From contig JAXHMG010000003.1 in the NCBI GenBank assembly GCA_034521595.1, positions 1,824,001-1,888,000 of the forward strand: a stretch of DNA of 64,000 bases. Reading direction: 5' to 3'. Shown in pieces: positions 4,672 to 22,969 of the stretch. Origin of the DNA: Gemmatimonadota bacterium (GTDB taxonomy: Bacteria; Gemmatimonadota; Gemmatimonadetes; Longimicrobiales; Gaopeijiaceae). A model generated the notes under the pieces. It was not told the origin of the DNA and ran no database searches. It saw only the letters and a program-made list of their open reading frames with translations. Every line of letters starts with the position of its first letter. The stretch's first letter is position 1. Position numbers and translations under genes: made by a program.

Positions 4672-7461
4672 ATGAGCGAAACCGACGGATCGAACGGACG
4701 GACCCCGCGCGAGGCGCCGACCCTCTTCCTGGACGGGGAAGAAGTCCCGTTCACGCCCGGCGAGACCCTCTTCGAGGTCTCCGAGCGGCACGGGCGCGAG
4801 GTTCCCACCCTCTGCTACGACGAGCGGCTCGACCCGTTCGGTGGCTGCCGCCTCTGCGTGGTCCAGCTCGAAGGCGCCCGCAACCCGGTCGCCTCGTGCA
4901 CGACGAAGGCCGAGCCCGGGATGAAGGTGACGACGCGGGGCGGCCGGCTCGACCTGCACCGCCGTGTGCTGATGGAGATGGTCGCCTCGGAGAACCGTGA
5001 CATCGACGTCGATCCGCTCTCCGGCTACGCCTCTCAGGAGATGGCGCAGCTCGTCGACCGCTACGAAGCCCGCACCGGCCGCTTCGAGGGCAAGACGTCC
5101 GGCCGCACGAAGTCCGAGGACACGAATCCGTTCCTGCTGCGGGACTACGAGAACTGCATCTCGTGCTACCGCTGCGTGCGGGTCTGCGCCGAGCAGGAAG
5201 GCGACTACGCGATCAGCGTGATGAACCGGGGCTTCGACACGCAGATCACGACCGAGTTCGACGGCCTCCTGAAGGACTCCGCCTGCACGTTCTGCGGCCA
5301 GTGCATCCAGGTCTGTCCCACCGGAGCGCTCGGCGATCTGAAGGCGCTCCGCCACAAGGACGTGCCGGGCGAGACCGAGACGACGCGCACGATCTGCACG
5401 TACTGCGGCGTGGGTTGCGCGGTCGACGTGATGAGCCGGGGCGAGAAGGTCGTCGGAGTGCTGCCGGCCATGGACGGCCCGGCCAACGAGGGCGCGTTGT
5501 GCATCAAGGGGCAGTTCTCCTACGACTTCGTGCAGCACCCGGACCGACTGAAGACCCCGCTCGTGCGGCAGGACGACGGGGCGCTTCACCCGGCCACCTG
5601 GGACGAAGCCCTCGACCGCGCCGCCGAGGGACTCGGACGGGTGGTCGAGGAACACGGCCGGCACAGCCTCTACGCGGTCGCGTCGGGCCGGGCCCCGAAC
5701 GAAGCCGCGTTCCTCATGCAGAAGCTCGTGCGGGCCGGGTTGGGGACCAGCTACATCGACAACTGTAGCCGGGCCTGACACGCCCCCACAGTCGCCGGTC
5801 TGGCGGCAAGCATCGGAAGGGGCGCCATGTCGAACCCGCTGCGGGACATGGAGCACCCCGACGTGATCTTCTGCATCGGGACGAACATGACCGAGGCGCA
5901 CCCGGTCGCCGCGACCCGCCTGAAGAAGGCGAAGCGGCGCGGGGCGAAGATGATCGTGGCGGATCCGCGCCGTATCGATCTGGCGGAGATGGCGGACCTC
6001 TACCTGCCCATCCGGGTGGGCTCGGACACGGCGCTCCTGCTCGCCATGGCGCACGTCATCGCGCGCGACGGCCTCGTCGACCAGGCGTTCCTCGAAGCGC
6101 GCACGACCGAGGGGGCGGCCTTCCTGGAGCACGTGGAAGAGTTCACGCCCGAGTGGGCTTCCGAGATCTGTGAGGTGCCGGCCGCGGACATCGAGCGGGC
6201 GGCGCTGTTGTACGGCCGGGCCGAGCGGGGCGCGATCTACTATACGCTCGGCATCACCGAGCACATCTGCGGCGTGGAGAACGTGCAGAGCCTCTGCAAC
6301 CTCGCGCTCATGACCGGGAACGTCGGGCGCGAGGGGACCGGCATCAATCCGATGCGCGGCCAGAACAACATCCAGGGAGCCGGCGACTCCGGCGCGATCC
6401 CGAACAACTACCCCGGCTTCCAGCCCGTCTCGGACCCGGCGAATCAGGCCAAGTTCGAGGAGGCGTGGGGCACGAAGGTCGATCTCGAGGTGGGAATCAC
6501 GAAGATCACCATGCTCGAGCAGGCCGGGGATCAGATCCGCGCGCTCTTCATCGACGGCGAGAACACGGTGGTCTCCGACGCGGACCGGGGGCACGCCGAG
6601 GCGGCGCTCGGGAAGCTCGACTTCCTGGTGGTCGCGGACCTGTTCCTCACGGAAACCGCCGAGCTGGCCGACGTGGTCTTCCCGGCGGCCGGCTGGACGG
6701 AGGTCGACGGCACGCAGACCAACACGGAACGGCGGGTGCAACGGCTCCGGGCCGCCGTGCCCCCACAGGGCGATGCGAAGCCCGATTGGTGGATCATCAG
6801 CCGGCTCGCCCGGCGCATGGGCTTCCAGGGCTTTGACTACGAGGGGCCCGACGAGGTCTTCAACGAGCTGTGCGCGCTGTCGCCCATCTACCAGGGGCTC
6901 GACTGGGACCGGGTCGACGAGGGACGCTATCAGTGGCCCGTGCCGCACGCCGGCCACTCGGGCACGCCGCGCCTGCACGAAGACGTGTTCGAGAACGGCC
7001 GGGGCATCTTCAAGCTCACCACGTACCGGGACCCCGCCGAGGTCGTGGACGACGCCTATCCCGTCTGGCTCACGACCGGGCGGCGGTTGCAGTCGTATCA
7101 CACGCATACCCAGACCGGACGGACGGAAGGGATCGGCTACCTGCTGCCGGGCGAGGTCCTCGAAGTGCACCCCGGCGACGTCGCACGATGGGGCCTCGAG
7201 GACGGCGGCGTCGCACGCGTGTCGAGCCGGCGCGGGAGCGTCGACGTCACGGTACAAGCGAATCCGCGGTCACCCTCCGGGACGGTCTTCCTGTCTTTCT
7301 CGTTCGCCGACGTTCCGGTGAACGTCCTCACAGGGGGCGGCTACGACCCGGTCACGCAGACCCCGGAAGTGAAGGTGTGCCCCGTCCGGATCGAACCACT
7401 GCGAAGAGACTCGTCGGGTATCGGCCGGCAGCCGTCCGCCCTCGCGGAAAGCGGGCCGTGA
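4672..7461 (+). CDS. fdhF: Formate dehydrogenase alpha subunit (Mo/W-bisPGD), selenocysteine at TGA 5776-5778
   Basis: ORFs 4672-5778 and 5827-7461 are in the same frame. Read-through gives DNCSRA-U-HAPTVAGL, the FDH active-site motif. Also present: N-terminal [2Fe-2S], 2x[4Fe-4S], CTYCGVGC and MRGQNNIQG. Confidence 0.93.
5779..5807 (+). promoter_or_regulatory. Bacterial SECIS element
   Basis: Stem GTCGCC (5791-5796), loop GGTCT, stem GGCGGC (5802-5807), starting 12 nt after the in-frame TGA. Position and GGTCT apex resemble the E. coli fdhF SECIS. Confidence 0.85.
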
Positions 7462-7489
7462 AGGGCGCTCCGCTGGACTCGCGGGCGGG

Positions 7490-7726
7490 TCAGCGGATGA
7501 TCGCGAGCGGAAGCAGGACCACGTAGGCCAGAACCAGGAGCAACGGCGCGGCGGTGATCGAGCCCTGGCTCAGCAGCCAATACCCGACGCCGAGCGAGAC
7601 CATGCCCGCGGCGGCGAGCATCGCGTTCACGCGGGTGAAGCGCAGCGCGGCGGGGCGGTCCTTCACCGCACCGGCGTCCCCCCTTCGCTTGCGTCGGGCT
7701 CTGGATCGTGTCTCTTGGTTGGCCAT
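7490..7726 (-). CDS. Small two-TM membrane protein (DUF3098-like)
   Basis: Basic N-terminus, then F..VN.MLAAAG...GYWLL..GSITAAPLLLVLAYVVLLPLAII; 78 aa. Confidence 0.7.
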   Translation of the reverse strand: MANQETRSRARRKRRGDAGAVKDRPAALRFTRVNAMLAAAGMVSLGVGYWLLSQGSITAAPLLLVLAYVVLLPLAIIR

Positions 7727-7760
7727 GGCGGCTGAATCGTAGAGGTGGGTCGGGCCGGGG

Positions 7761-9107
7761 TCAATCGGCCCGGAGATGCTCCCGGAGCTCCTCCGGGTCG
7801 ATGCCGAGACGTTTCGCGGCCGCCGCTTCGTCGCCATCCGTGCTTTCCAGGACGACGCGCACGTGCTTGCGGATGGCCGCGGCCAAGGAAAGGTCGAGAT
7901 GTCCTGGGCCGTGGGGGTCCTCGTCCCCGAGGATGAGATGGTCGGGTCCGATCACGGTCCCCCGTGCCATGATCGCCGCGCGCATGAGCGCGTTCTCGAG
8001 CTCACGGACGTTCCCGGGCCAATCGTGGCCACGCAGCTTCGCGAGCGCGTCGTCGGAGATCCGGCGAATGTCCCGATGGGTTTCTTCGCGAATCCGGCCC
8101 AGCATCGAGTTGGCGATGAGCTCAACGTCGTCGGGACGCGCGCGCAGGGGCGGCACTTCGATCTCGACGACGTTGAGGCGAAAGTAGAGGTCTTCGCGGA
8201 ACCGTCCGTCTTCGATGAGCTCCTCGATCGGCTGATGCGTGGCGGCGACGATGCGCGCATCGGTGCGCCGTACGTCCTCACCACCGACCGGGTAGAAGCG
8301 GCGTTCCTGCAGCACCCGCAGGAGCTTGGTCTGGAACTCCGGACTGGTGTCGCCGATCTCGTCGAGAAAGACCGTGCCCTTCTTGGCGAGCTCGAAATAG
8401 CCCTTCCGCCCGCTCGACGCCCCGGTGAACGCTCCCTTCACGTGGCCGAACAGCTCCGACTCCAGCAGCGTGTCGGTCACCGCCGTGCAGTTCACGGCGA
8501 TGAACGGCTCATCCGCGTAGACCGAGTGCTGGTGGATCGCTCGGGCGATCACCTCCTTTCCGGTCCCCGTCTCACCCCGCACGAGCACGGTCGCCCGGTT
8601 CTTCGCCAGCACTCCGATCGTCTTGTAGATCTCGATCATGCGCGGGTTGCGGCCGACGAGCTTTCCCCGGGGAAGCGCATCCAGATCCTCCGGCGTGTCC
8701 CCGTGTTCTCCCGCGTCGACGGTGAGCGCCTGCTCGCGGAAGCACCGTTCGGCGAGTCCCTGTACGGCTTTCGGATCGACCGGCTTCACCAGGAAATCGA
8801 ACGCCCCGGATTTCATGGCGGAAACGGCCGTCTCCATATCGTCGTGGGCCGTCATCACCACGACCTCCACCTGATCCATCGACTCCCGAACGCGCTCGAG
8901 GAGCGCCAACCCGTCCATGTCGCCCATGCGCACGTCGGTGACGATCAAGCCTGGGTCGAACGCGTTCACCCGCGCCAGCGCCGTCTCGGCGCTTTCGGCC
9001 GTCTCCACGTCATAGCCGGCATGCTCGAGGCGGGTGCGGAGCACGTCGAGGGCGTCGACATCGTCGTCGACGACGAGGATCCGCTGGGGGGAGGGACGCT
9101 GGCTCAT
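7761..9107 (-). CDS. Sigma-54-dependent response regulator (NtrC/AtoC family)
   Basis: Receiver domain (VVDDD, TDVRM, KP), Walker [40 protein letters not shown]. Confidence 0.93.
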
Positions 9108-9115
9108 GCGACGTG

Positions 9116-10183
9116 CTACCCCCCGAGGCGGTCACGAGGATCCACGGGCGCTTCCGGTCCGTCGTCCGTTCCATACGCCCAATAGGCCGGCACGTCCGGG
9201 AGCTCGTCGGCTCTCAACCGCGCCAGCCGCTCCCGGTTACGAGCCCGGCGCACGCGCATCATGTACACGAGCACCACGCCGAGCAGGAGCCAGAACACGC
9301 TCGAATGCGCGAGCACGAACAGCCATCCGTAACGGGACTTCACGTGCTCGCGCCAGTCCTCCTCGAGTTGGCCGCTGGTCACCCCGTACGTCGTCCGGAG
9401 CGCGGACTCGAAGGAGCCTTCGGAGCGCCACCGGTCCAGGAAGATCGCGAGACCCCGCTCGCCGCTCCCTTCCAGCAGATAGGTCACCGCGCTCGCGGAG
9501 AGCAGATAGGCGGTTCGGGCCTGAGCGCGGCCGGCCGGCCAACCCAGGGTGAGCGAATCCATCGCGGGCGCACGACCGAGCGCGAGGCCGACCCGGAGCC
9601 GCCACGCCTGCATGGCGTCGAACCCCCCGGACGCCCATTCGGCGTAGCCCTCGTTGAACCAACGCGGGATGCGGAGCCCGTCGAGGTATTGGTGCAAGGC
9701 GAGGTGCGCCCACTCGTGACGCAGCGTCGTGAGTCCTTCGCCCGACAACACACCCGCCCCCTCGCCGGCCGGAATCACGAGCAAATCGAGCGACGGAACG
9801 GCCACGCCGGCCCGCCATTCGGGAACCACGCCCCCGGTCAGCTCGTCGAGCGCCGCCGGGCTGTGGGCGAGGACCGCGTGCACGTTCCGCGGAAACGAAT
9901 CGGGAAGCGCGGGCAGCGGCGCCTGGCCATCGAGCAACGTGCGCATCCGCTCCGCCAGCTCGGCGTGGCGGGCCGTGAAATAGACGGTCGTGCGCTGACC
10001 CGCGAGGCTGAGGTATTCCTCGCCGTCCAGCGAATCGGGGATGGGACGCTCGAGGGCGTCACCCACCACCTCGATCGTGTCCAGCGCCGGGGTTTCGCCC
10101 GTCTCGGCGGGCTCCTGGGAGAACGCGGACGCACTCACCGCCAAAGCGAACACGAGGGCGAGCGGAAGGGCGGCCACGCTCAC
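9116..10183 (-). CDS. Membrane-anchored zinc metallopeptidase (MA clan, gluzincin-like)
   Basis: Signal peptide, HEWAH plus downstream PRWFNEGYA, and a C-terminal TM helix followed by an Arg-rich stop-transfer sequence. Confidence 0.8.
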   Translation of the reverse strand: MSVAALPLALVFALAVSASAFSQEPAETGETPALDTIEVVGDALERPIPDSLDGEEYLSLAGQRTTVYFTARHAELAERMRTLLDGQAPLPALPDSFPRNVHAVLAHSPAALDELTGGVVPEWRAGVAVPSLDLLVIPAGEGAGVLSGEGLTTLRHEWAHLALHQYLDGLRIPRWFNEGYAEWASGGFDAMQAWRLRVGLALGRAPAMDSLTLGWPAGRAQARTAYLLSASAVTYLLEGSGERGLAIFLDRWRSEGSFESALRTTYGVTSGQLEEDWREHVKSRYGWLFVLAHSSVFWLLLGVVLVYMMRVRRARNRERLARLRADELPDVPAYWAYGTDDGPEAPVDPRDRLGG

Positions 10184-11799
10184 TCGCTCTGGAGCGTCTC
10201 CAAGTTGGACCGCACCGCCTCGTTCTGTGGATTGAGGTCGAGCGCACGCCGCCAGAGCAACAGGGCCACGTCCCGGTCATTGTCCTTGTAGGCCATCGTC
10301 CCGAGCCGAAGGTAGACGTCGTCACCCAGCCTCGGCGCGATCTTCACGGCCTTCTCGTACTGGACGCGCGCGCCATCCAGATCTCCGCGCGCGTACGCCT
10401 GGTCGCCGAGGTTCTTGTGCGCCTGCGGCAGCGGTGGATGGAGCGCGACGGCTCGCTTGTACAGCGCCTCGGCCGCTTCCACTTCCCCTCGTCGCTCCAG
10501 CACCGTGCCGGTATTGACCAAGATCGCGCCGGAGGCGGGATAGTGTCCCATTCCCTCCTGACCCACGCGCACCGCCATGTCGAGGTCCCCGGCGACGGCC
10601 GCGGCCAGCACGGTGTAGGCGTAATACTGCTCGGCCGGGACCTTGAGCCCGGGATAGGTACGGTAACGGCGGAACGCTTCGAGCGCCTTGTCGACGCGTC
10701 CCGCCTTGAACTCCACGATGCCCCGCGCGAGGTAGACCTCGTGGTCCTTCGGACGCGCTTCGGCCGCCGCCTCCAACGCTTGGAGGGCCTCGTCATGACG
10801 GCCGAGCGCTTCGAGCGCCAGCGCCGTGTTGCGGTGTACCGCATAGCTCTCGGCATACCCCGGCGGCATCGATCCGAAATGGGCGAGGGCTTCCTCGAAG
10901 CGGCTCCTGCGAAAAGCGATCAATCCCATCATGAAGTTCGCCCGAGCCTGCCGGGGATCCGCTTCGAGCACTTCCTCGAACTCTCGTTGCGCGTCTTCGA
11001 GCATGCCCGACCGGTAGAACGCGATGCCGATGTTCAGGTGTTGCTGAAGCGCCTCGTCCCCCCCGGTCTCCTCCTCGGTCGTTCGCTCCCCCGCCCGTGA
11101 CACGAAGCCGGCCTGGATCAAGCCATACAAGGCCTTGCCGGTCTCGAACTCCACGAGGCCGGCCTCGTTCATGATCTCGTCGACGGTGCGCACCCCGTCG
11201 ATGAACGGCAGGACCTTGCGTTGCTCTCGCGTCAGCTCGATGTCGCTCTCGGCCTCCGTCGGATCCACGTCGACCTGGAAGACGATATCGAACGAAGGGA
11301 TCTTCTTCTCGACCAGACTCCACTCGTCCACACGCCGGGCGCCCTCCATGAGGAGCGCCTCGGGCGAAATGTCGACGAGCAAGAGCCCGTCTTCGTCGGG
11401 CATCTGGTCCGTGTCGAAGTGGAACGCTCCCTGGGACCAGGTGAACAGGTAATAAACCGCCTCTTCCACCTGCATCTGAATGTAGCGGCGCAGGTCTTCC
11501 TGACTGAGCGCCCCCATCTCGACCAGGATCTCGCCGAGCCGCTTTCCCTTTTCCTCGGCCTGCCGCTCGATGGCTGCGGAGAGGTCCTTGCGGGTGATCA
11601 CGTGGTTGCGCACCAAGAGCTCTCCCAGCCGATCCCTCCGGTTGAGCACCGATGCGTAGATGACCCTTCCCTGCTGGAAATAGATGTAGCCGAAGTTGGA
11701 CCGGTCCGTGATGCTGAGGCAGCCCGTCTTGCGGCCCATCCCCAAGAGCTGACAGATGTCGGCCAGGCTGACGTCCTGAAGCGCTCCTTCGATGGCCAT
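10180..11799 (-). CDS. DUF4388/PATAN-domain protein with MshEN-type motifs and C-terminal TPRs
   Basis: N-terminus G.L.D.SL.D..QLL....KTG.L, two RLGxxLV repeats, FTW..G.F.F, LLMEGARRVDEW, then multiple TPRs. Confidence 0.85.
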   Translation of the reverse strand: MAIEGALQDVSLADICQLLGMGRKTGCLSITDRSNFGYIYFQQGRVIYASVLNRRDRLGELLVRNHVITRKDLSAAIERQAEEKGKRLGEILVEMGALSQEDLRRYIQMQVEEAVYYLFTWSQGAFHFDTDQMPDEDGLLLVDISPEALLMEGARRVDEWSLVEKKIPSFDIVFQVDVDPTEAESDIELTREQRKVLPFIDGVRTVDEIMNEAGLVEFETGKALYGLIQAGFVSRAGERTTEEETGGDEALQQHLNIGIAFYRSGMLEDAQREFEEVLEADPRQARANFMMGLIAFRRSRFEEALAHFGSMPPGYAESYAVHRNTALALEALGRHDEALQALEAAAEARPKDHEVYLARGIVEFKAGRVDKALEAFRRYRTYPGLKVPAEQYYAYTVLAAAVAGDLDMAVRVGQEGMGHYPASGAILVNTGTVLERRGEVEAAEALYKRAVALHPPLPQAHKNLGDQAYARGDLDGARVQYEKAVKIAPRLGDDVYLRLGTMAYKDNDRDVALLLWRRALDLNPQNEAVRSNLETLQSE

Positions 11800-13686
11800 T
11801 CAGTCCAACTCCTCGATCAAGAAGTCGGGAAGTCGTGGCCAGTGAATGACCGCGTTCTCACGGCTCGGAGACCAACTCCCGCCCCTGCGCGCGTCGGCCG
11901 GAACGGAGTCCACGCCCACGCTCTCATGATGAGGCGATGAAGCAGCCTCGGACGGAGGCTGGGAGGCGGAAGACACGCCCTCCTCCTCCTCCGGCCCGCC
12001 TGACGCCTCTCCACCGAGCACACCGTCCAGCTCCAGCTCGGAGAGTAGGCCGCTCCCTTCGAGCGTCAGCGCCTCGTCCTCCAGAATGAGATCGGTACCG
12101 GGCGTCCCCGAGGTGAGCTCCAGCACCAAGCCCCCTTCGAACCGGGACCGCAGACGATCGTCGATGCTGCCGATCTCCGAAGGGGGCCGGTCCGCAACCA
12201 ACAAGATCCGGGCGCCCCGGCGCTTGAGCGCCTCGAAGAGGTGGAAGAACTCGTCTTGCGCACGTTCCGTCTCCGAGAGCGCCTCGAGTCCGTGGACGAG
12301 GAGTAGGTCCACGGTCCACCAGCGCTCCCGCCAGGCTCCGGCGACTCCCTCACCGAGGGCCCGAATGAAGTCGTCGGCGAAGCCCTGGAGTGACGTCACG
12401 GCCATGCGGGACGTCGGCTGCGTCGCCTGAAAGGTCCGCCCGGCCGCGCCAAGGAGCGTCTTCCCGAGGTCCTCGTACGGAGCGACGACGAAGAGCGGGC
12501 TGTACTCGGGCCGCTCGGTTCCCACGAGCTGCGCAGCCGCCTTGAGCACGATGCCCGGGTAGTCCTGGAGGTCGGTGAGCTTCTGCCCTTCCGTCAGGTT
12601 GGGGAACGGCCTCTGCCGCTCACGCACGGACGCGAGAAGCGACTCCGCCTCCTGTAGGCGATCCGGATCCTTCAACACCCCCGCCGCGGCTTCCGGCCAC
12701 GGATTGCCGAGCTCCTCCAGCTCTTCGTCGATCTGACGCAGGCGCTTCACGTCGGACCGGAAACGCTCGATGATCTCTTCCCAACCCTCGGGCTCGTCCT
12801 CCTTCAGATACGGCTCGAGTCGAAGCGTGGAGAAGCCCTCCCGCTCCGCGGCGTCGATGGCCTCATGGAACGCCCGGCGCCACGGCGCCTCCTTTTCCTC
12901 CACGACCTCGGCCAACGAGGTCACCAGGTCGTCGAGGAACGAGTCGAACTCCTCGTCCGTGGGTGCGTCGGCGGCCGTGACCGAGCCCATGAGGAGAGAG
13001 ATCTCGTCCACTTGCACGCGCCGGTCCTCGAGCTCCTGAATCGCCAACACCTTGTTCAGGCCTCCGCCGAGCTCCCGCACGTTCCGGAACGGATGTCGCG
13101 CCAACGCTTCCGCGACACCGGCCTCCAGCGACTGTCCCCGCTCCTTCGCCTTCTTGTGGATGATGGCGACGCGCGTCTCGTATTCCGGGACCCCGATGTC
13201 CACGATCAAGCCGCCCGAGAACCGGGACAGGAGCCGTGCATCGAGTCCGTTGATGTCGGCCGGCGGCCGGTCGCTGGCCAGAACCATTTGACTTCCCGAA
13301 GCCGACAGCTCGTCGAGCGTGCGGAGGAGCATTTCCTGAGCTTCGGGTTGGCCGGTCAGGAACTGGACATCGTCCAGCAGCAGGATGTCGAGATCCTCGA
13401 ACAACGTCCTGCCATCGTGCGTTCCGCCCTCGAGCGCCGTCTCGAGCCGATCCAGATACTTCTCGAGCGCAAGGTACTCCACCCTACGTCCCGCCCCCCT
13501 GTCGGCCTGATGCGCGATGGCCGTGAGAATGTGCGTCTTTCCGAGCCCCGAAGCCGAATAGACGAACAGCGGGTTATAGCTCGTGCCCGGGGACTCGGCC
13601 GCCCGCCTCGCCGCGGCGGAGGCCAGACGGTTCGCGGGCCCCACCACGAACGACTCGAACGTCAGCTTGGGATCGAAATCCGACAT
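11800..13686 (-). CDS. DnaA/Hda-like protein with tandem AAA+ domains, lacking DnaA domains I and IV
   Basis: TFESFVVGPAN, YNPLFVYSASGLGKTH, LLLDDVQ, RLLSRF, NVREL, then a second degenerate copy (YSPLFV..LGKT, QDEFFHLF, RLRSRFEGGL). Likely start is ATG 13686. Confidence 0.85.
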   Translation of the reverse strand: MSDFDPKLTFESFVVGPANRLASAAARRAAESPGTSYNPLFVYSASGLGKTHILTAIAHQADRGAGRRVEYLALEKYLDRLETALEGGTHDGRTLFEDLDILLLDDVQFLTGQPEAQEMLLRTLDELSASGSQMVLASDRPPADINGLDARLLSRFSGGLIVDIGVPEYETRVAIIHKKAKERGQSLEAGVAEALARHPFRNVRELGGGLNKVLAIQELEDRRVQVDEISLLMGSVTAADAPTDEEFDSFLDDLVTSLAEVVEEKEAPWRRAFHEAIDAAEREGFSTLRLEPYLKEDEPEGWEEIIERFRSDVKRLRQIDEELEELGNPWPEAAAGVLKDPDRLQEAESLLASVRERQRPFPNLTEGQKLTDLQDYPGIVLKAAAQLVGTERPEYSPLFVVAPYEDLGKTLLGAAGRTFQATQPTSRMAVTSLQGFADDFIRALGEGVAGAWRERWWTVDLLLVHGLEALSETERAQDEFFHLFEALKRRGARILLVADRPPSEIGSIDDRLRSRFEGGLVLELTSGTPGTDLILEDEALTLEGSGLLSELELDGVLGGEASGGPEEEEGVSSASQPPSEAASSPHHESVGVDSVPADARRGGSWSPSRENAVIHWPRLPDFLIEELD

Positions 13687-13788
13687 CGGACCGGGGTTGA
13701 TCTCCCTCAGGCTATACGGAACGGCGAAGTTCAAGTATCGACGACATGACCCCGGAAAAAAAGGGCATTCTAGGGTCCGAGCCCGCGC

Positions 13789-14772
13789 TCACTCGCGCTT
13801 GCTCCGGCTCCCGTCCACGGGCTCACGTCCCCAACGGAGGGCCGCGGCCAGGTCCTCCGGAAGCTCGGCGTGAAAGCGCATGTGTTCGCCGGTGGCCGGG
13901 TGATCGAAGCCGAGCGCCGCGGCGTGGAGAAACTGACGGGGGACGCGGCGAGCGAGCTCTTCCGCCCATCGCCGGCCGTTTCCACCCATGCCCCGCTCCC
14001 AACCGGCTCCGTATACATCGTCTCCCACTACGGGGTGTCCGATGTGACTCAGATGGACGCGGATCTGGTGGGTGCGCCCCGTCTGCAGCGCCACATCGAG
14101 CAGATCCGCACGCTCCCAGCGCTCCGCGACCCGGACCCGGGTGACGGCCGACCGCCCCCCGTCCACCACCGCCATCTTCTTGCGGTCGCGCGGATCACGG
14201 CCGATGGGCTCATCGATCACCCGGACGTCCTCGCGGAGATGACCCCAGACGAGTGCACGGTAGATCCGCCGGATCCGGCGAGCCTCGAGCGCTTCGCGGA
14301 GCGCCAGGTGCGCCACGTCCGACTTCGCGACGAGGAGCAACCCCGACGTATCCCGGTCGAGGCGATGGACGATGCCCGGCCTCAGGCGTCCGCCCACGCC
14401 CGAGAGGTCCCGTACATGAAAGAGGAGCGCGTTGACCATCGTACCGGATCGGTGACCGGGGGCGGGATGCACGACCATGCCGGCGGGCTTGTTGACGACC
14501 GCCAGATGCTCGTCCTGATAGACGATCTCGAGCGGAAGGTCTTCCGGCTCCATCGACACGGGCCGGGCCGGCGGCACCCGGACCCGCACCCGCTGGCCCT
14601 CCGCGACCGCCTCCGACTTGCGTCCCGGGCGGTCGTCCACGGTGATCCTTCCTTCCACCAGGAGCTTCTGTACCCGGGTCCGCGAGAGCTCGAGGTGGTC
14701 GGACACGAACCGGTCGAGCCGGCCCGTATCGCCGGAACCGACCGTGAGCTCGTGGACTTCATCTTCGGTCAC
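13789..14772 (-). CDS. rluD: RluA/RluD-family pseudouridine synthase
   Basis: S4 domain (RLDRFV..SRTRVQ), NKPAGMVVHP, HRLDRDTSG, TGRTHQIRVH. GTG start at 14772 is inferred. Confidence 0.9.
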   Translation of the reverse strand: MTEDEVHELTVGSGDTGRLDRFVSDHLELSRTRVQKLLVEGRITVDDRPGRKSEAVAEGQRVRVRVPPARPVSMEPEDLPLEIVYQDEHLAVVNKPAGMVVHPAPGHRSGTMVNALLFHVRDLSGVGGRLRPGIVHRLDRDTSGLLLVAKSDVAHLALREALEARRIRRIYRALVWGHLREDVRVIDEPIGRDPRDRKKMAVVDGGRSAVTRVRVAERWERADLLDVALQTGRTHQIRVHLSHIGHPVVGDDVYGAGWERGMGGNGRRWAEELARRVPRQFLHAAALGFDHPATGEHMRFHAELPEDLAAALRWGREPVDGSRSKRE

Positions 14773-14776
14773 GAGC

Positions 14777-17700
14777 TCATCCGGATGCGGGCCGGAGGGC
14801 GATCCAGGCCGGTGTACCGTCGATATCGACCTCGGAAGCGTGCGGGAATCCGTTCCGCTCCCCCGCTCCCTCCTCCAGGAGGGCAACGTCGAGCGCGAGC
14901 GTCTCACCACCGATGAAGTCGCGGTGTGTGCCCGCGGCCGTGCGAATCGCCTCGGGCCCCGAGATCCCGAGCTCGATGCGGTCCGTGATCTCGAGCCCCG
15001 CGTCCTTTCGGAGTCGCTGGATCCGGTTCACCAACTCGCGCGCCATGCCCTCCAGCCGGAGCTCTTCGTCCAACTCCGGATCCAGAGCGACCGTGAAGCC
15101 GCCTTCACCCTTGACCACGAAGTCGCCGGTCGATTCCTGCAGGACTTCGAGATCGTCCTCGATCAGCTGATACCGGACGTCCTCGAGCACGATCTCCACC
15201 GCCTCACCCCGCTGGAAAGCCCGGATCCGGTCCTCGTCCAGGGCGCGAATCGCGTTGGCCGCATCGTTGGTCCGCTTCCCGAATCGGCTGCCGAGGGAGC
15301 GGTAGTTCGGCTTCGCCGACAGGCTGACCAATCCTTCGGCGGTGCTGAGAAAGCGAATCTCCTTCACATTGAGCTCGTCCCGCACGACCTCGAGCACTTC
15401 GCCGGACAGCGCCCGGCCTCCGGGGACGACCGCCTCCATGGTCCGCAAGGGCTGCCGCACTCGAATCCGCACTTCTTCACGGGCCGCGCGTCCGAGCGAG
15501 ACGAGGGACCGCGCCGCGTCCATGTCGGCTTCCAAGTCCGCGTCACTCCGGTCCGAAGATCGAGGGAAGCGCTGGAGGTGCACGCTTCCCTCGGCCAACG
15601 CCCGATGAAGCCAATCCGCGGTGAACGGCACACAGGGCGCCGCGAGCAAGCTGACGGCGCGCAACGCTTCCCACAGGGTCCGGAACGCGGCCCGCGTGTC
15701 CGCCTCGTCCGCGTTCCCCCAGAAGCGTGCCCGGTTCCGGCGGACGTACCAGTTCGAGAGGTCCTCGACCACGAAGTCCCCGACCGCCCGGTACGCGCGC
15801 GTGAGCTGGTAAGCGTCCAGCGCTTGCCGGGCCTCTTCGGTCACCGTGTCGATCCTCGACAACAGCCACCGGTCGAGAAGAGGCCGATCGTTCGGCGCGG
15901 GATCGGCCTCCGACGGGCTCCAGTCCTCCGCGTCCGCGTACAGGGTGAAGAAGCGGTACGTGTTGAAGAGCGTGTCGAAGAACCTCCGTGCGGCTTCCCG
16001 CACTCCCGCCGGGTCGTATCGCTTGGGCACCCACGGGTTCGACGACGTGATGAAGTACCAGCGGAGCGCATCGGATCCGTGGTCGCTGATCGCGTCCCAC
16101 GGGTTCACCACGTTCCCCTTCGATTTGGACATCTTCTGTCCCTCGGCGTCGAGGATCAGGTCGTTCACGACCACGTTCCTGTACGCCGGGCCCCGTCCGA
16201 GCAGGGTCGAGATCGCCATGAGCGAGTAGAACCAACCTCGAGTCTGGTCGAGCCCTTCGCAGATGAAATCCGCGGGGAAATGCCGCTCGAACTCGGCCTC
16301 GTTCTCGAACGGGTAGTGCCACTGGGCATAGGGCATCGCACCGGAGTCGAACCACACGTCGACCACCTCGGGCGTGCGTCGCATCGTGCCTTCGCACTCG
16401 CTGCATTCCCACGTGAAGTCGTCGATGTACGGTCGGTGCGGATCGAAGTCCTCCGGAAGCGGGCCCACGGCCGCCTCGAGATCGGACCGTGAGCCGATCC
16501 AATGCACGTGCTCGTCATTCCGGTCGCAGACCCACACCGGCAGGGGCGTGCCCCAATACCGGTCGCGCGACAACGCCCAGTCGACGTTGCCACGCAGCCA
16601 CTCTCCGAACCGCTTCTCCCCCACTTCGGGCGGGTGCCAGGCCACCGCCTCGTTGTTCTCCAGAAGCTGGTCCCGGAGACTCGACGTCGCGGCGAACCAG
16701 GAGTGGCGCGCCACGTAGAGAAGGGGAGAATCGCAGCGCCAACAGTGCGGATAGCTGTGGGTCACCTGGCTGATATCGAAGAGGAGGTCCCGTGCTTCCA
16801 GCTCTTCGACGAGGACGGGGTCCGCATCCTTCACGAACTGGCCTGCGACCAAGGCGACGTCGTCCACGAAGCGGCCCGCGTCATCGATGGGGTTGAGCAT
16901 GGGGAGCCCGTGACGCTGTCCGGCTGCGTAGTCGTCCGCTCCGAACGCCGGGGCCATGTGCACGATGCCCGTACCGTCGTCGTCGCTCACGAAGTCTTCC
17001 GCGATCACCCGCCAGCCATTCCCGACGTCCTCCGGCTCCGCGACGAGGTCCAGGGGGCGGCGATACCGCAGCCCGACGAGCTCGGTGCCCCGGTAGGTCC
17101 GGACCACTTCGGCCTCTTCCCCGAACAACCCTTCGACCCGGGCTTCGGCAGCGATGTAGCGTCGACCGTCGTCCAGCACCTCGGCGTAGATCAACTCCGG
17201 ATGGACCGCGAGGCCGGTGTTGGACGGCACCGTCCAGGGCGTCGTCGTCCAGGCGAGGAACGCGCGGCCTTCAGGATCGGGCTCGCCGTCTTCGGTCATC
17301 ACCTCGGCCACGAACGTGAGCGAAGGGTCCTCGACCTCTTTGTACCCGAGAGACACCTCGTGGGAGGAGAGCGTCGTGCCGCAGCGGGGACAGTAGGGCA
17401 CGCTCTTGTGCCCCTGATACAACAACCCGTCGTCGGCGAACTTCTTGAGAATCCACCAGACCGACTCGATGTATTCGGTGTGGTACGTGACGTAGGGACG
17501 CCAGTACTCGAGCCAGTACGCGATGCGCTCGCTCAGCTTCTCCCACTCTTCTTTGTAGGTGAACACCGAGTCCCGGCACACCTCGTTGAAGCGCTCGATG
17601 CCCACGGCCTCGATCTCGGGCTTCCCGCTGATTCCGAGCTTCTTCTCGGCCTCGATCTCCACCGGAAGCCCGTGGGTGTCCCAGCCGGCGATCCTTGTTA

Positions 17701-19649: not shown

Positions 19650-20330
19650 TCAGCGAACCTGGAACGTAATCGGGAACGAGACCCATACGGGAACCTGCTG
19701 ATCCCGGTTCAGCGCCGGCGAGAACTGGTAGACCTCGGCCACGTCCAACGCCGCTTGGTCGAGCGCGTCGTGACCCGAGCTCTGGTCGATTCTGAAGTCC
19801 TGGACCCGGCCGTTCTCGTCGATGAAGAAGTAGACCCTGACCGTGCCACCGATCCCGGCGTCACGGAGAAGCGAGGGATACTCCCGCTCCATGGCCCGGA
19901 CGACCTCACTCCGGTTCTGGATCTCCGGAGCGACGGTGAACGGCGTGAAGGTCGGCTCGTCGGACAAATTCCCACCTTCCTGATCGGGCGGCGGCGGCAG
20001 GTCTTCGGCCGGATTGTCCTCGAACGTGGTCGGGGCGATCGTGATGTCCTCCTCGACGTCCGCCTCGGCGATAACCGGCGTCGCGGGGCGGGAAATCGCC
20101 TCCGGCGGCGGCGGAACCTCGACCTCGGGCGGCAGCTCGATGGACTCGAGCTCCTCCGAGCTGACCGAGAAGTCCTCCGCCGTCAATTCCGGCCACAGCG
20201 CGAACGTGCCGAAGTGAATCAGCGTCGCCGCGATCATCGAGCCCCAGAACCACGATGCGAACGACCTCTTCAACCGGTCGTTGGCGGTTTCGGCGAGTAC
20301 TGGACCCGCTCCTGCTTCTTCCTCGCTCAT
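19650..20330 (-). CDS. tonB: TonB family energy transducer
   Basis: N-terminal TM with His, Pro-rich spacer, C-terminal YP...GIGGTV...IDENG.V...SSG..LD.AAL domain. Confidence 0.9.
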   Translation of the reverse strand: MSEEEAGAGPVLAETANDRLKRSFASWFWGSMIAATLIHFGTFALWPELTAEDFSVSSEELESIELPPEVEVPPPPEAISRPATPVIAEADVEEDITIAPTTFEDNPAEDLPPPPDQEGGNLSDEPTFTPFTVAPEIQNRSEVVRAMEREYPSLLRDAGIGGTVRVYFFIDENGRVQDFRIDQSSGHDALDQAALDVAEVYQFSPALNRDQQVPVWVSFPITFQVR

Positions 20331-20776
20331 CGTCTTGCCCTCTGCATGCTCTGTTCCAACTGGGAAGCGAACACCACCCGAACCACACCTGCTTCGACCA
20401 ACTCCTTCTGGACCTGGTCCATGAAGCGATACGGGACGTTGCGGTCGCCACGGATGGAGATGACGAGCCGCCGGTCGGAGTCGGCGTACAGCGGAGCCAC
20501 GACCGAGGAAACGTCGGTCATCGGCGTTTGCTGGTCGTTGATGAAGACCGAGCCGTCACGCTCCATCCAGATGTTGAGAATATTTTCCCGCTTCTCGTCG
20601 ATCTTCTCCGCCGCTTCCGCCTCCGGCCACTCGATGGGCCGCTGACGATCGTCCTGGAAGACGGTCGTGACCATGAAGAAGATGAGAAGCAGGAACGCGA
20701 TGTCCGCCAAAGAGGAAGTCGGCACTTCGGAGGACGCCTTTGACTTGCGGCTGAAGCCGCCACCCTTGATGGCCAT
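20327..20776 (-). CDS. exbD: ExbD/TolR biopolymer transport protein
   Basis: PTSSLADIAFLLLIFFMVTT TM segment with the conserved Asp. Confidence 0.9.
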   Translation of the reverse strand: MAIKGGGFSRKSKASSEVPTSSLADIAFLLLIFFMVTTVFQDDRQRPIEWPEAEAAEKIDEKRENILNIWMERDGSVFINDQQTPMTDVSSVVAPLYADSDRRLVISIRGDRNVPYRFMDQVQKELVEAGVVRVVFASQLEQSMQRARR

Positions 20777-21202
20777 CTAGTTCTCCAACACCTGGAGGGA
20801 AATTCGCTCGGCGTTCGCCGAGTGCAACGCGTCGAGGACGTCGACCATGTACTCGTACGCGGCGTCCGGGTGGGTCTTCACCGCGGCGATCAGGTTCTCG
20901 TTGGCCGCGACCTCCTGCCGCCACAGACCCTCGATCTCGTTGGGACGCATCTGCTGCACCTGCTGGCTCTCACCGCGTCGTACATCGACCACGCCGTTCG
21001 GCTGGACGATGAGGTGGAGGATGTTGCTCTGGTTGACCTGCGCCTCTTCGCCCGGCTCGGGCAGGACGATCGCCAACCCCTTGTCCTTCGGGAAAGTGGT
21101 CGTCACCAGGAAGAAAATCAGGAGCAGGAACGCGATGTCCGCCGTGGAGGACGTCGGAACCTCGTCGCTGACCTTCTGTCTCTTCTTGTTCAGAACTGAC
21201 AT
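20777..21202 (-). CDS. exbD: ExbD/TolR biopolymer transport protein (second paralog)
   Basis: PTSSTADIAFLLLIFFLVTT. Confidence 0.9.
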   Translation of the reverse strand: MSVLNKKRQKVSDEVPTSSTADIAFLLLIFFLVTTTFPKDKGLAIVLPEPGEEAQVNQSNILHLIVQPNGVVDVRRGESQQVQQMRPNEIEGLWRQEVAANENLIAAVKTHPDAAYEYMVDVLDALHSANAERISLQVLEN

Positions 21203-21258
21203 GTCGTTCGGCCTCGTGTGTGATCAGAGGTACTCATCCGGCCCGTGCGAAGTTCCTG

Positions 21259-22017
21259 CTAGGTATTGTCCGACCCCGGGGTCGCGATCCCTTCCGGCGA
21301 CGAGGGGCCCGCAGTCGGCGGCGTGCCGGAGATCTCGGCCGGCGACTCTTCCTCGTCGGTCTTAACGATGTGGATTTTCCCTTCCTTCTCGAGGTCCCAC
21401 GCGAGGTTGAGGATCCGCTGAGCGCCTCGCTCCATGTCCACGATCAAGGTGTCGATCCGGGTGACGAAGAAGTTGTACCCGATGTTGACGGGCACCGCGA
21501 TCGTCAGGCCGGCGGCGGTCGTCAGCAGCGCGACCTTAATACCGCCCGCGACCAGCGAGGGATCCACATCCCCCGCGGCTTCGATGGCGGCAAAGGCCAG
21601 GATCATCCCTGCCACGGTGCCCAGGAAGCCCATGAGCGGAGCAACGTTCGCGATGGTCGCGAGAATCACGAGCCCTCGCTCGAGAAATCCGAGCTCGATG
21701 GTTCCGGTAGTGGCCACCGCCGACTCGAGCTCGCCCTTCGCGAGCGTCTTCGTCTGGATGCGCCGCAATCCGGCAAGCAGGATGGCCGCGGCCGGTCCGG
21801 GGGTTTCCGACGCGATCTCGATCGCCCCGTCGATGTCTCCCGCCATCGTCGCCTGTTCGACCTCATCGAGAACACTCAGGGTCCCCCTGTGGGCAACCCA
21901 GAGCGTCCAGGCCTTGGCGATGATGACACCAACCGCGATCAGTGAGCAGAGAACGAGCGGATACATCATCCACCCGCCGTCGGCAAACAAGGTCAGTAGC
22001 CGATACTCAGAGGCCAC
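21259..22017 (-). CDS. exbB: MotA/TolQ/ExbB proton channel protein
   Basis: GGWMMYPL, APLMGFLGTVAGMI, GIKVALLTTAAGL. Start GTG 22017 has an AGGAG RBS; TTG 22059 is the alternative. Confidence 0.9.
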   Translation of the reverse strand: MASEYRLLTLFADGGWMMYPLVLCSLIAVGVIIAKAWTLWVAHRGTLSVLDEVEQATMAGDIDGAIEIASETPGPAAAILLAGLRRIQTKTLAKGELESAVATTGTIELGFLERGLVILATIANVAPLMGFLGTVAGMILAFAAIEAAGDVDPSLVAGGIKVALLTTAAGLTIAVPVNIGYNFFVTRIDTLIVDMERGAQRILNLAWDLEKEGKIHIVKTDEEESPAEISGTPPTAGPSSPEGIATPGSDNT

Positions 22018-22092
22018 GAATACTTCGCTCCTGATGAGGGGTTGGTCGTACCCGGACAATCCACGCCGGGCACTGGCTGTTGGAACGTCGGC

Positions 22093-22144: not shown

Positions 22145-22969
22145 CTAGGGGCCGGCGGGGGCCTCCGCGGCGGAAGCGCTCGCCCCCGCCGATGTCACGT
22201 CCGCGCGCACCGTGTCCCCCGCTACGATGGACCGGAGACGCTCCGAGGTCACGCCCCGCTCGAGGCGCCCCCCGATCGCGATCGACACCTGTGCCGTCTC
22301 CTCGCTCACCACCACGACCACGGCGTCGGTTTCTTCACTCAAGCCGAGCGCCGCGCGGTGCCGCGTCCCGAGGGAGCGGTCCCGCACCGTGGTCTGGGTA
22401 AGCGGGAGGATTGCGCCCGCAGCGCGGATCTGGTTGCCGGAGATCAGTACGGCACCGTCGTGCAGTGGCGAGTACGGCGTGAAGATCGTGGCGAGCATCT
22501 CCGCGGAAACGCGGGCTTGTACCCGACTCCCGGTTTCCGCGTACTCGTCGAGCCCCACGTCGCGCTCGATCGCGATGATCGCCCCGTGCTTCGCGCGCGC
22601 CAGCCGCTCGGTCGCTTCGACGATCTCGTCGATGACCTCCGTACCCTCCATCTTCTGGAAGAACTGGATCATGCGGCTGCGCCCGAGCCGCGCCAGCGCC
22701 GCGCGCAACTCCGGCTGAAAGACGACGAGCGCGGCGATCGCGCCGTATTGGAAGATCGCCTCGAGCAATCCTCGGATGAGGATGAAATCCAGGAGCCGTG
22801 CCGCTCCGTAGGTGCCGGCCAGGAGCGCCCCACCCAGCATGATCTGCATCGCCCGAGTGCGTTGAAGGACGAGCAGAATCCGGTACAGCAGGACCGCGAC
22901 GAGGAGAATCTCGACGAGGTCCGTCCAGCCGGGCCGCAGGAGCCGTAGCTGCTCCCAGGCGCTACTCAA
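22145..22969 (-). CDS. cdaA: Diadenylate cyclase CdaA/DacA
   Basis: Three N-terminal TMs, VVFQPELR, PLHDGA and GTRHRAA catalytic motifs. Confidence 0.93.
   Translation of the reverse strand: MSSAWEQLRLLRPGWTDLVEILLVAVLLYRILLVLQRTRAMQIMLGGALLAGTYGAARLLDFILIRGLLEAIFQYGAIAALVVFQPELRAALARLGRSRMIQFFQKMEGTEVIDEIVEATERLARAKHGAIIAIERDVGLDEYAETGSRVQARVSAEMLATIFTPYSPLHDGAVLISGNQIRAAGAILPLTQTTVRDRSLGTRHRAALGLSEETDAVVVVVSEETAQVSIAIGGRLERGVTSERLRSIVAGDTVRADVTSAGASASAAEAPAGP

Follow-up and report, generated by a model that had tools for sequence, protein, structure and literature searches.

A tandem DnaA-like ATPase of Gemmatimonadota, distinct from the replication initiator, and its predicted docking to a neighboring PATAN/TPR protein

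A 64,000 nt stretch of genomic DNA from a Gemmatimonadota bacterium of the family Gaopeijiaceae (GenBank assembly GCA_034521595.1, contig JAXHMG010000003.1, positions 1,824,001 to 1,888,000 of the forward strand), referred to below as the window, carries a gene for a protein with two DnaA-type AAA+ ATPase modules in tandem. This tandem protein is a DnaA paralog, and not the initiator of replication. On balance it is probably, with the odds leaning only slightly this way, a non-replicative DnaA-derived AAA+ switch, forming one half of a fixed two-protein unit; the other half, encoded by the next gene downstream, combines a PATAN domain, an MshEN-like insertion, and TPR repeats. To our knowledge, the roles described for DnaA-type AAA+ domains are limited to the initiation of replication and the direct control of that step (DnaA, Hda), helicase loading, and help in transposition. 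In the family described here, a DnaA-type AAA+ module is put to new use, both its architecture and its non-replicative context being new. The tandem gene and its parts are as follows, with positions counted along the window and residues along the protein:

11800..13686, minus strand: tandem DnaA-like coding sequence, 628 amino acids plus stop codon, with the ATG at 13686
12982..13686, minus strand: domain 1, a complete DnaA domain III with AAA+ core and lid, residues 1-235 (Pfam, 155.9 bits; Foldseek, 8bv3_A)
12601..12939, minus strand: helical middle domain, family-specific, residues 250-362 (predicted local distance difference test score, pLDDT, 95-98; conserved in the family alignments)
12112..12564, minus strand: domain 2, a DnaA-type AAA+ core with degenerate Walker A and B motifs and no lid, residues 375-525 (Pfam, 89 bits)
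12139..12156, minus strand: box VII and Arg finger of domain 2, RLRSRF, residues 511-516 (finger Arg in 40 of 47 sequences, box VII Arg in 41 of 47)
11884..12102, minus strand: disordered tether, acidic and rich in Ser and Gly, residues 529-601 (pLDDT below 50; ratio of nonsynonymous to synonymous substitution rates, dN/dS, 0.49-0.77)
11803..11883, minus strand: C-terminal motif, a predicted TPR-binding peptide, residues 602-628 (W616 in 44 of 47 sequences; low dN/dS; complex model)

Pfam matches Bac_DnaA (PF00308) twice in the protein, at residues 5-163 (155.9 bits, profile positions 2-162 of 162) and at residues ~389-522 (89 bits, profile positions 29-161). It matches neither DnaA_N (domain I, PF11638) nor Bac_DnaA_C (the domain IV helix-turn-helix, HTH; PF08299) there. 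An earlier interpretation made from the letters alone, here called the sequence-only reading, had proposed that domains I and IV are absent and had predicted exactly this outcome for a profile scan. The N-terminus lies 9 residues ahead of the TFxxF motif of domain III, as it does in 14 orthologs. The aligned start codons of 14 ortholog open reading frames (ORFs) are ATG in ten cases and GTG in four, and upstream of this shared start the ortholog sequences show no conservation; the ATG at 13686 is therefore favored, and a possible TTG start at 13734 is unlikely.

Domain 1 is intact, with Walker A (SASGLGKT, 44-51), Walker B (LLLDD, 102-106), sensor I, box VII (RLLSRF, 151-156), Arg finger, and sensor II (NVREL, 202-206); four of these, Walker A, Walker B, box VII, and sensor II, had been named in the sequence-only reading, and each is found in the translation where that reading placed it. 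Residues aligned to E. coli DnaA K178, D235/D236, D269, R281, R285, L290, and R334, which we take to be the functional residues of domain III, are all kept. Domain 2 was likewise correctly described from its letters as having broken Walker motifs (APYEDLGKT, 402-410; LLLVHGLE, 461-468) together with an RLRSRF motif that retains the Arg finger: the translation and an alignment with E. coli DnaA give G, H, and G at the positions of K178, D235, and D236, with the equivalents of R281, R285, and L290 preserved.

An AlphaFold2 model of the full-length protein, made with an alignment of 47 family members, has a mean pLDDT of 84.9. Module 1 with its lid (1-235), an all-helical domain (250-362), and the module 2 core without a lid (375-525) are predicted with confidence. 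Residues 529-604 are disordered (pLDDT below 50), and the C-terminal motif, with its near-invariant W616 and terminal IEEL-type end, is of middling confidence (pLDDT 50-67). The acidic disordered stretch that had been predicted to end in WPRLPDFLIEELD is borne out, these being residues 616-628. By Foldseek, the closest structure to module 1 is domain III of Bacillus subtilis DnaA (8bv3_A; E 6.9e-22, target-normalized template modeling score, TM, 0.91), superposed with a root-mean-square deviation (rmsd) of 1.9 Å over 232 columns at 40% identity. DnaA of Thermotoga maritima and Aquifex aeolicus come next, and Hda is weaker (3bos, 1e-12). The double-ring proteins p97 and Rix7 are poor matches (TM 0.20-0.32, rmsd 13.6-18.4 Å); with these scores, and with both modules belonging to PF00308, a type II AAA+ protein of the classic clade (p97/NSF/Rix7-like) was ruled out.

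Between the two modules, the sequence-only reading had placed an acidic helical linker of ~170 amino acids. The region is indeed helical, but neither the length nor the word linker holds: it has a pLDDT of 95-98 and is conserved family-wide (alignments A1, A2, and A3), and is therefore a folded domain of ~113 residues (250-362) rather than a spacer. Folded alone, it has a pLDDT of 86.4. Searches for relatives of this domain gave a single sub-threshold Pfam row (DUF5805, E 0.57), a best E-value of 0.047 against PDB sequences, nothing better than E 3.0 with Foldseek, a best Z of 6.0 with VIA-align (under the stated noise level for helical bundles), and no usable match in the ESM Atlas; failure to find a fold match in these searches is no proof of a novel fold.

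That the tandem protein is not the initiator is seen from several directions. Elsewhere on the same contig (C3:2945195-2946142), the host genome (3.49 Mb, three contigs, 93% complete) holds a canonical dnaA that matches both Bac_DnaA and Bac_DnaA_C; looking for such a gene had been suggested as a check. It contains the only Bac_DnaA_C match in the genome (C3:2945195-2945401). The dnaN gene (C3:2944448-2944798) is directly downstream of it and 1.11 Mb from the tandem gene. As the sequence-only reading had it, no DnaA-box cluster lies near the tandem gene: the 64-kb window has one box with one mismatch, against 1.93 expected by chance. The tandem protein is 41% identical to the genome's own DnaA; in NCBIfam, its score against the DnaA equivalog TIGR00362, summed over the two modules, is 337.2 bits, below the cut-off of 343.9. 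The initiator role was rejected on the absence of domains I and IV, this sub-cut-off score, and a location away from dnaN and DnaA boxes. Both modules thus share the fold and sequence of DnaA domain III (PF00308; 8bv3/8btg, 2z4r, 1l8q/2hcb/3r8f), and domain 1 keeps all the nucleotide-site motifs and the lid, but in contrast to DnaA the protein has no domain I, linker domain II, or domain IV HTH; it has two modules, a new helical domain between them, and a C-terminal peptide motif; and its gene is away from oriC and dnaN, in a genome with a separate canonical dnaA.

Hda is a single module of ~230 amino acids that works with the sliding clamp. Like Hda and HdaA, the tandem protein is a DnaA-derived AAA+ protein with no DNA-binding domains and with its Arg finger kept. 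The sequence-only reading had suggested that domain 2 might act on the true DnaA as an Hda-like inactivator or a filament cap. On this view the protein would co-assemble with DnaA by way of AAA+ contacts, and would use an Arg finger to stimulate hydrolysis or would block filament growth. Both modules are true relatives of DnaA domain III, by the identity and structural similarity given above, and both have equivalents of R281, R285, and L290, presumably DnaA-type contact residues; moreover, the genome has no separate Hda, its only further Bac_DnaA match being an IS21 IstB. Nevertheless, the tandem protein scores only 114 bits against the Hda model TIGR03420 (NCBIfam cut-off 194.8), and domain 1 matches DnaA far better than Hda among PDB sequences (2e-50 vs. 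5e-6). The protein starts at domain III, with no clamp-binding-type motif in its first 20 residues (taking QL[SD]LF-like to be the form of this motif in Hda). No replication genes (such as dnaA and dnaN) and no DnaA boxes are linked to the tandem gene in any locus examined, and as far as names show the family occurs in a single phylum. At 628 amino acids and with two modules, the protein also differs from Hda in its architecture and its greater closeness to DnaA, and in a genomic context and a predicted partner unrelated to replication: its invariant partner is the PATAN/TPR protein, and its tail is predicted to dock there. An Hda-like or capping role is left unsupported, and we consider it improbable.

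A word-indexed search found more than 3000 relatives; the 12 that carried organism names were all from Gemmatimonadota or Longimicrobiales. Their database names include "DnaA/Hda family protein," "DnaA ATPase domain-containing protein," "hypothetical protein," and "chromosomal replication initiator protein." An exhaustive search with residues 247-628 yielded 86 cluster representatives at E ≤1e-30. Alignment A1 consists of the query and 46 of 150 listed representatives (27-61% identity), restricted to proteins of 549-697 amino acids whose match starts at about residue 240-310; fragments and proteins of more than 700 amino acids were dropped. Five longer proteins with module-2-like DnaA AAA+ stretches inside them (P0194, 1990 amino acids; P0208, 1876; P0220, 1248; P0226, 1178; P0252, 1272) were also excluded from the alignments.

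Within A1, the Walker A and B motifs of domain 1 are invariant, with the Walker A lysine and the first Walker B aspartate each present in all 47 sequences. For module 2 the corresponding counts are 31 of 47 for the lysine (25 with a strict GxxGxGK[ST]) and 37 of 47 for the aspartate. The box VII arginine is found in 37 of 47 first modules and 41 of 47 second ones, and the Arg finger in 40 of 47 for both; non-conservation of the second finger had been named in advance as an observation that would count against the sequence-only reading, and the opposite is seen. The sensor II arginine of module 1 is present in 42 of 47; module 2 of the query has no lid. W616 of the C-terminal motif is present in 44 of 47. 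Since most sequences have the aligned Walker A lysine, module 2 reads as a live, normal ATPase across the greater part of the family, and its degeneration is confined to the section of the tree that holds the query. The sequence-only reading missed this intact second ATPase, as well as the nature of the tail, a conserved, predicted TPR-docking motif. Wherever the module-2 site is dead (19 sequences), the module-1 finger is Arg, and the seven sequences that have lost it all have a live one; the sequences are related to one another, so this pattern is an observation rather than a test. In a quick tree (support values only from the Shimodaira-Hasegawa-like approximate likelihood ratio test, with no rooting or donor drawn from it), domain 1 forms a clade of 43 rows with support 100, and the domain-2 sequences group in a topology that parallels it; long or compositionally biased branches carry E. 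coli Hda and a low-GC group (P0163, P0168, P0183, P0213).

Three natural short forms have no module 2 (L021 and L023, family f2; L039, family f6), and in all three, module 1 is retained along with the helical domain and the C-terminal motif. Three other loci have the tandem gene broken up into a pair of overlapping ORFs, in the vicinity of the boundary between lid and helical domain in two of them (L025, genome G009; L040, genome G149) and inside the helical domain in the third (G006:C236); these splits are frameshifts or assembly errors.

A phylum sample of 151 genomes, 150 of them at least 90% complete and including the unpublished G019 and G082, was searched for the helical domain. It was found in 102, once in each: in 73 of 74 genomes of family f4, 21 of 31 of f5, 1 of 16 of f1, and none of 23 of f7 and f9-f12. 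An apparent absence in one genome (G091) is a sensitivity miss, the tandem gene being present. Four f5 genomes (G061, G072, G096, and G136) have canonical DnaA only and no tandem gene. Occurrence beyond Gemmatimonadota was probed through the PATAN/TPR partner alignment A4 only; judged by names, the family is nearly confined to this phylum. A literature search found no paper on a tandem DnaA paralog, and none linking a DnaA-like ATPase to MglA, PATAN, or Roadblock.

The partner gene has the following features:

10180..11799, minus strand: partner gene, 539 amino acids, PATAN (DUF4388) with MshEN-like insertion, then TPR repeats (Pfam/NCBIfam)
11452..11667, minus strand: MshEN-type insertion in PATAN, of the type that binds cyclic diguanosine monophosphate (c-di-GMP), partner residues 45-116 (NF053729 and PDB sequence matches)
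10315..10947, minus strand: TPR stretch homologous to the predicted tail-binding groove, partner residues 285-495 (mapped via alignment A6)

The ATPase stop codon and the partner start codon adjoin without a spacer (TGAATG). The sibling loci, 38 in number and including the unpublished L022, come from three families of the order and from another five in the class. In 37 of them the partner starts between -11 and +29 nt from the ATPase stop, mostly at -1 to +1; the exception is L040, in which the ATPase gene is split. The pairing also holds in the other direction. A search with the partner protein, taking one genome per species, found 615 relatives. Among the best 80, 79 are titled as Gemmatimonadota lineages, and a DnaA-like ORF ends no more than 60 nt upstream of the partner gene in 79 loci; the remaining locus has only 303 nt of upstream DNA. 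The one differently titled case (L088) is a 2559-base contig labeled Planctomycetota, with a PATAN/TPR ortholog and an upstream DnaA-like ORF; it could be misbinned, or could be a copy from beyond the phylum.

In the window's genome the partner is the only DUF4388 protein. Its insertion matches NCBIfam NF053729 (MshE-related c-di-GMP-binding; 55.8 bits, cut-off 38) and, among PDB sequences, PilF (6f8l, 1e-10), PilB (5tsg, 2e-8), and MshE (5htl, 3e-5); the genome has seven T2SSE-family ATPase matches over cut-off. According to the part of a preprint covered here (bioRxiv 10.1101/2021.06.11.447907), PATAN, equivalent to DUF4388, binds PilB1 and PilC in Synechocystis, and MglA/MglB genes are often found near PATAN genes. 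These PATAN regulators of type IV pili are, in this respect, among the closest known systems. Of the 38 sibling partner genes, 28 went into alignments A4 and A6; left out were L007-L013 and L015 (cut at the locus end), L040 (a 422 amino acid form), and the unpublished L022.

Two further genes follow the pair. A membrane-anchored HExxH peptidase (Peptidase_MA_2; 9116-10183, minus strand) has a start overlapping the stop of the TPR gene, and 8 nt past it is an orphan sigma-54-dependent response regulator (7761-9107, minus strand). The same string of ATPase, partner, peptidase, and regulator is found in f1 relatives (L016, L024, L025); in other families the peptidase is further downstream, or absent from the fetched stretch.

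A physical contact between the two proteins is predicted from a natural short form. An ESMFold2 complex of the 394 amino acid ATPase of genome G027 (locus L021) and its cognate 538 amino acid partner, with alignments supplied for both chains (A5, A6), was modeled three times, with interface scores (ipSAE) of 0.76, 0.76, and 0.75 against 0.00 for the highest of three controls. Partner pLDDT was at least 76, and contacts agreed from run to run to at least 80%. Of solved complexes, 116 of 157 pass the mark used, as do 2 of 215 mismatched pairs; these rates apply only roughly to this case, with its own alignments supplied. The confident interface joins ATPase residues 365-394, the last 30 and containing the C-terminal motif, to partner TPR residues 282-492. 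Mapped onto the window, these are residues 602-628 of the tandem protein (from ortholog residues 368-394) and 285-495 of its neighbor (A6). Interface positions of the TPR region are slightly more conserved than the rest of it (0.61 vs. 0.55), and of 2000 equally large random sets, 48 have a mean at least as high as that of the interface. Neither domain 1 nor the middle domain has confident contacts in the model, which is no evidence against contact. Docking of the conserved tail in the partner's TPR groove is thus supported, at the level of a predicted complex.

TPR co-chaperones such as Hop and CHIP recognize C-terminal EEVD-type peptides of Hsp70 and Hsp90. The predicted arrangement is similar to theirs, with a short acidic-hydrophobic C-terminal peptide on a disordered tether in a concave TPR groove, but the motif here is longer (~27 residues, with an invariant Trp), and its partner is the product of the next gene.

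In most of the class, the pair sits inside a supercluster of Che, TPR, Roadblock, and MglA-like GTPase genes. In the closed genome G164 the order is IleRS-LspA-RluD-CheW-CheY-CheA-CheC-TPR-TPR-PATAN/TPR-TPR/Roadblock-Roadblock-Roadblock, the last Roadblock being a weak MglB match, followed by small Ras-like GTPase-tandem ATPase-PATAN/TPR-CheR-CheD-CheB-CheW. A GTPase gene is directly upstream of the ATPase gene in all 20 class-level loci and all four f3 loci. The window has the same IleRS-RluD anchor, with the ATPase gene ~100 nt after RluD; the adjacent GTPase is missing in 12 of 12 f1 loci, and the module-2 Walker A is degenerate in all 11 f1 loci that cover module 2. GTPase loss and Walker A degeneracy are probably one evolutionary event, so their coincidence is not a statistic. 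The window's locus is a reduced remnant of the chemosensory/MglA-type supercluster, with only the ATPase-adaptor pair left. In two f1 loci, a Roadblock-like ORF separates rluD from the tandem ATPase gene (L014, 1561-2505; L024, 6623-7147; both minus strand), in what looks like an intermediate stage of cluster reduction.

The relatives' pair, lying among genes for Che proteins, an MglA-like GTPase, Roadblock, TPR, and PATAN proteins, recalls the Frz and MglA/MglB(Roadblock)/RomR systems of Myxococcus xanthus, from which the window's genome differs in having no Che, Roadblock, or linked GTPase genes. The part of PMC4316618 covered here places group 1 MglA in Gemmatimonadetes and notes PATAN genes near some mglA genes; it has no occurrence of "DnaA," and to that extent no described polarity module contains a DnaA-type ATPase.

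A reduced locus raises the question of decay. Having lost its Che, GTPase, and Roadblock genes, the pair might be a functionless remnant, with domain 2 on its way to deletion; the f1-wide degeneracy of the module-2 Walker A and absence of the adjacent GTPase would fit, as would the failure to find CheW and Roadblock in the window's own genome. Comparison of the window gene with those of five genomes of the same genus points the other way. dN/dS is 0.06-0.12 for the module 1 core (amino acid identity 0.84-0.88), 0.10-0.16 for module 2 (0.76-0.86), 0.05-0.14 for the helical domain (0.79-0.85), and 0.06-0.16 for the C-terminal motif (0.76-0.86; four of the five comparisons, dS not being computable in one), but 0.49-0.77 for the disordered tether (0.25-0.34). 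With dS near saturation (0.6-2.5) these ratios are rough, but the contrast between regions of the gene is clear. The dead module 2 is under purifying selection, as is the C-terminal tail; with a dN/dS like that of module 1 and far under that of the tether, module 2 is not decaying. The reading frame is intact, the C-terminal motif and zero-spacer coupling to the partner are retained, and the partner is 73-88% identical in the closest loci. Decay is the least probable of the alternatives considered here.

Nucleotide-dead AAA+ subunits that keep an Arg finger are known, for example clamp-loader delta-prime and some ORC subunits. As in these, a dead module with an intact finger is under selection here, and it may work alike; the differences are that live and dead modules are in one chain, and that the dead state is lineage-specific. 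A mechanism can be proposed on this basis. Domain 1 would be the only site of ATP binding and hydrolysis in the window's lineage, judging by its motifs. Domain 2, a pseudo-ATPase, would complete or regulate a neighboring ATP site with its box VII, Arg finger, and oligomerization surface, in a head-to-tail DnaA-like assembly formed in cis or between molecules; provision of its finger to the domain-1 site, as suggested in the sequence-only reading, is plausible. The C-terminal peptide, on its disordered tether of ~75 residues, would dock in the concave face of the partner's TPR solenoid, as in the ortholog complex model. By analogy with their families, PATAN and the MshEN-type insertion could provide a second-messenger input, probably c-di-GMP, and the partner could act on a polar or type IV pilus apparatus. 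Ancestrally, the unit would have belonged to the chemosensory and MglA/Roadblock polarity supercluster, with the window's lineage losing those genes and keeping the pair. The family looks suited to cell-polarity signaling rather than DNA replication.

Several observations weigh against a non-replicative switch acting in polarity. The modeled pair are orthologs (domain 1 ~40% and partner 48% identical to the window's) and not the window's own proteins; TPR-peptide complexes are abundant among solved structures, so the score may in part reflect likeness to them; and the predicted template modeling score (pTM) of the full-length AlphaFold2 model is only 0.53. The window's genome, at 93% completeness, has no match to CheW and none to Robl_LC7 (Roadblock), and its sole MglA-like GTPase is an unlinked paralog, 58% identical, beside dnaX-recR; the polarity reading therefore rests on relatives. 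Three genomes without the tandem gene (G061, G072, G136) still have a copy of the cluster GTPase, 72-73% identical, so the ATPase is not obligatory for the GTPase module. Finally, the residues of domain 2 that align with E. coli V211 and R245, which we take to be single-stranded DNA (ssDNA) contacts, are preserved, so nucleic-acid binding stays conceivable.

This last point leads to another possible function: the protein could polymerize on ssDNA, RNA, or the nucleoid via its pore residues, tethering the PATAN/TPR protein to the chromosome and linking chromosome state to polarity. Domain 2 has I and R at the V211 and R245 positions (with the roles assumed above) and retains a DnaA-like ERxQEEFFHxF stretch, and AAA+ proteins of the initiator clade generally act on DNA. 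Domain 1, however, has E at both positions; no HTH or other DNA-binding domain was matched; and at least two lineages (L021/L023 and L039) have undergone deletion of domain 2, with domain 1, the middle domain, the C-terminal motif, and the partner all still in place. Such an anchor is unlikely, if a little less so than the Hda-like and decay alternatives.

The switch interpretation can be carried further. As a tentative extension, which we hold with distinctly less confidence than the non-replicative switch itself, a DnaA-type ATPase removed from replication may have become the nucleotide-driven assembly switch or timer of a Ras-like-GTPase/chemosensory polarity circuit, recruiting a c-di-GMP-sensing PATAN/TPR adaptor by a tethered peptide; in the window's lineage it would be pared down to an autonomous pair, with the dead module serving only as finger donor and interface. 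A linked MglA/MglB polarity module in the window's own genome was considered and rejected, there being no Roadblock and no linked GTPase; linkage is seen in relatives.

Some other features of the genome may be recorded here. The unlinked MglA-like GTPase gene (C3:783946-784521; locus L047, 9947-10525) lies between recR and pgsA, in a dnaX-recR ... cinA-grpE-dnaJ stretch, and is preceded by a 104 amino acid ORF that matches no family; a GTPase paralog of this dnaX-recR type is present in most f4 and f5 genomes besides the cluster-linked one. Within the window, a CdaA-type diadenylate cyclase next to ftsH (22148-22969 and 23009-25036, both minus strand) and, downstream of the cyclase, a TolQ/TolR/TolR/TonB-like set (19653-22059) are ordinary housekeeping genes. 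A promoter and terminator scan of positions 7400-15000 gave no signal above shuffled sequence, and PADLOC gave no match for the tandem ATPase and two weak TPR rows for the partner. A search for sequencing runs returned four DNA entries and none of RNA.

For genome annotation, names such as "chromosomal replication initiator protein" and "DnaA/Hda family protein" are misleading for this family. The family forms a natural series, with two live sites, with one live and one dead, or with one site only, from which domain 1, the helical domain, and the tail emerge as the indispensable parts. The predicted placement of the tail in the TPR groove is a concrete and testable protein-protein contact, and the family gives a handle on the uncharacterized Che/MglA supercluster of the Gemmatimonadota, a phylum that is widespread in soil and sediment and whose cultured members could be open to genetics. 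If the proposed function is correct, it would represent a phylum-wide re-use of the DnaA motor domain for signaling or cell polarity.

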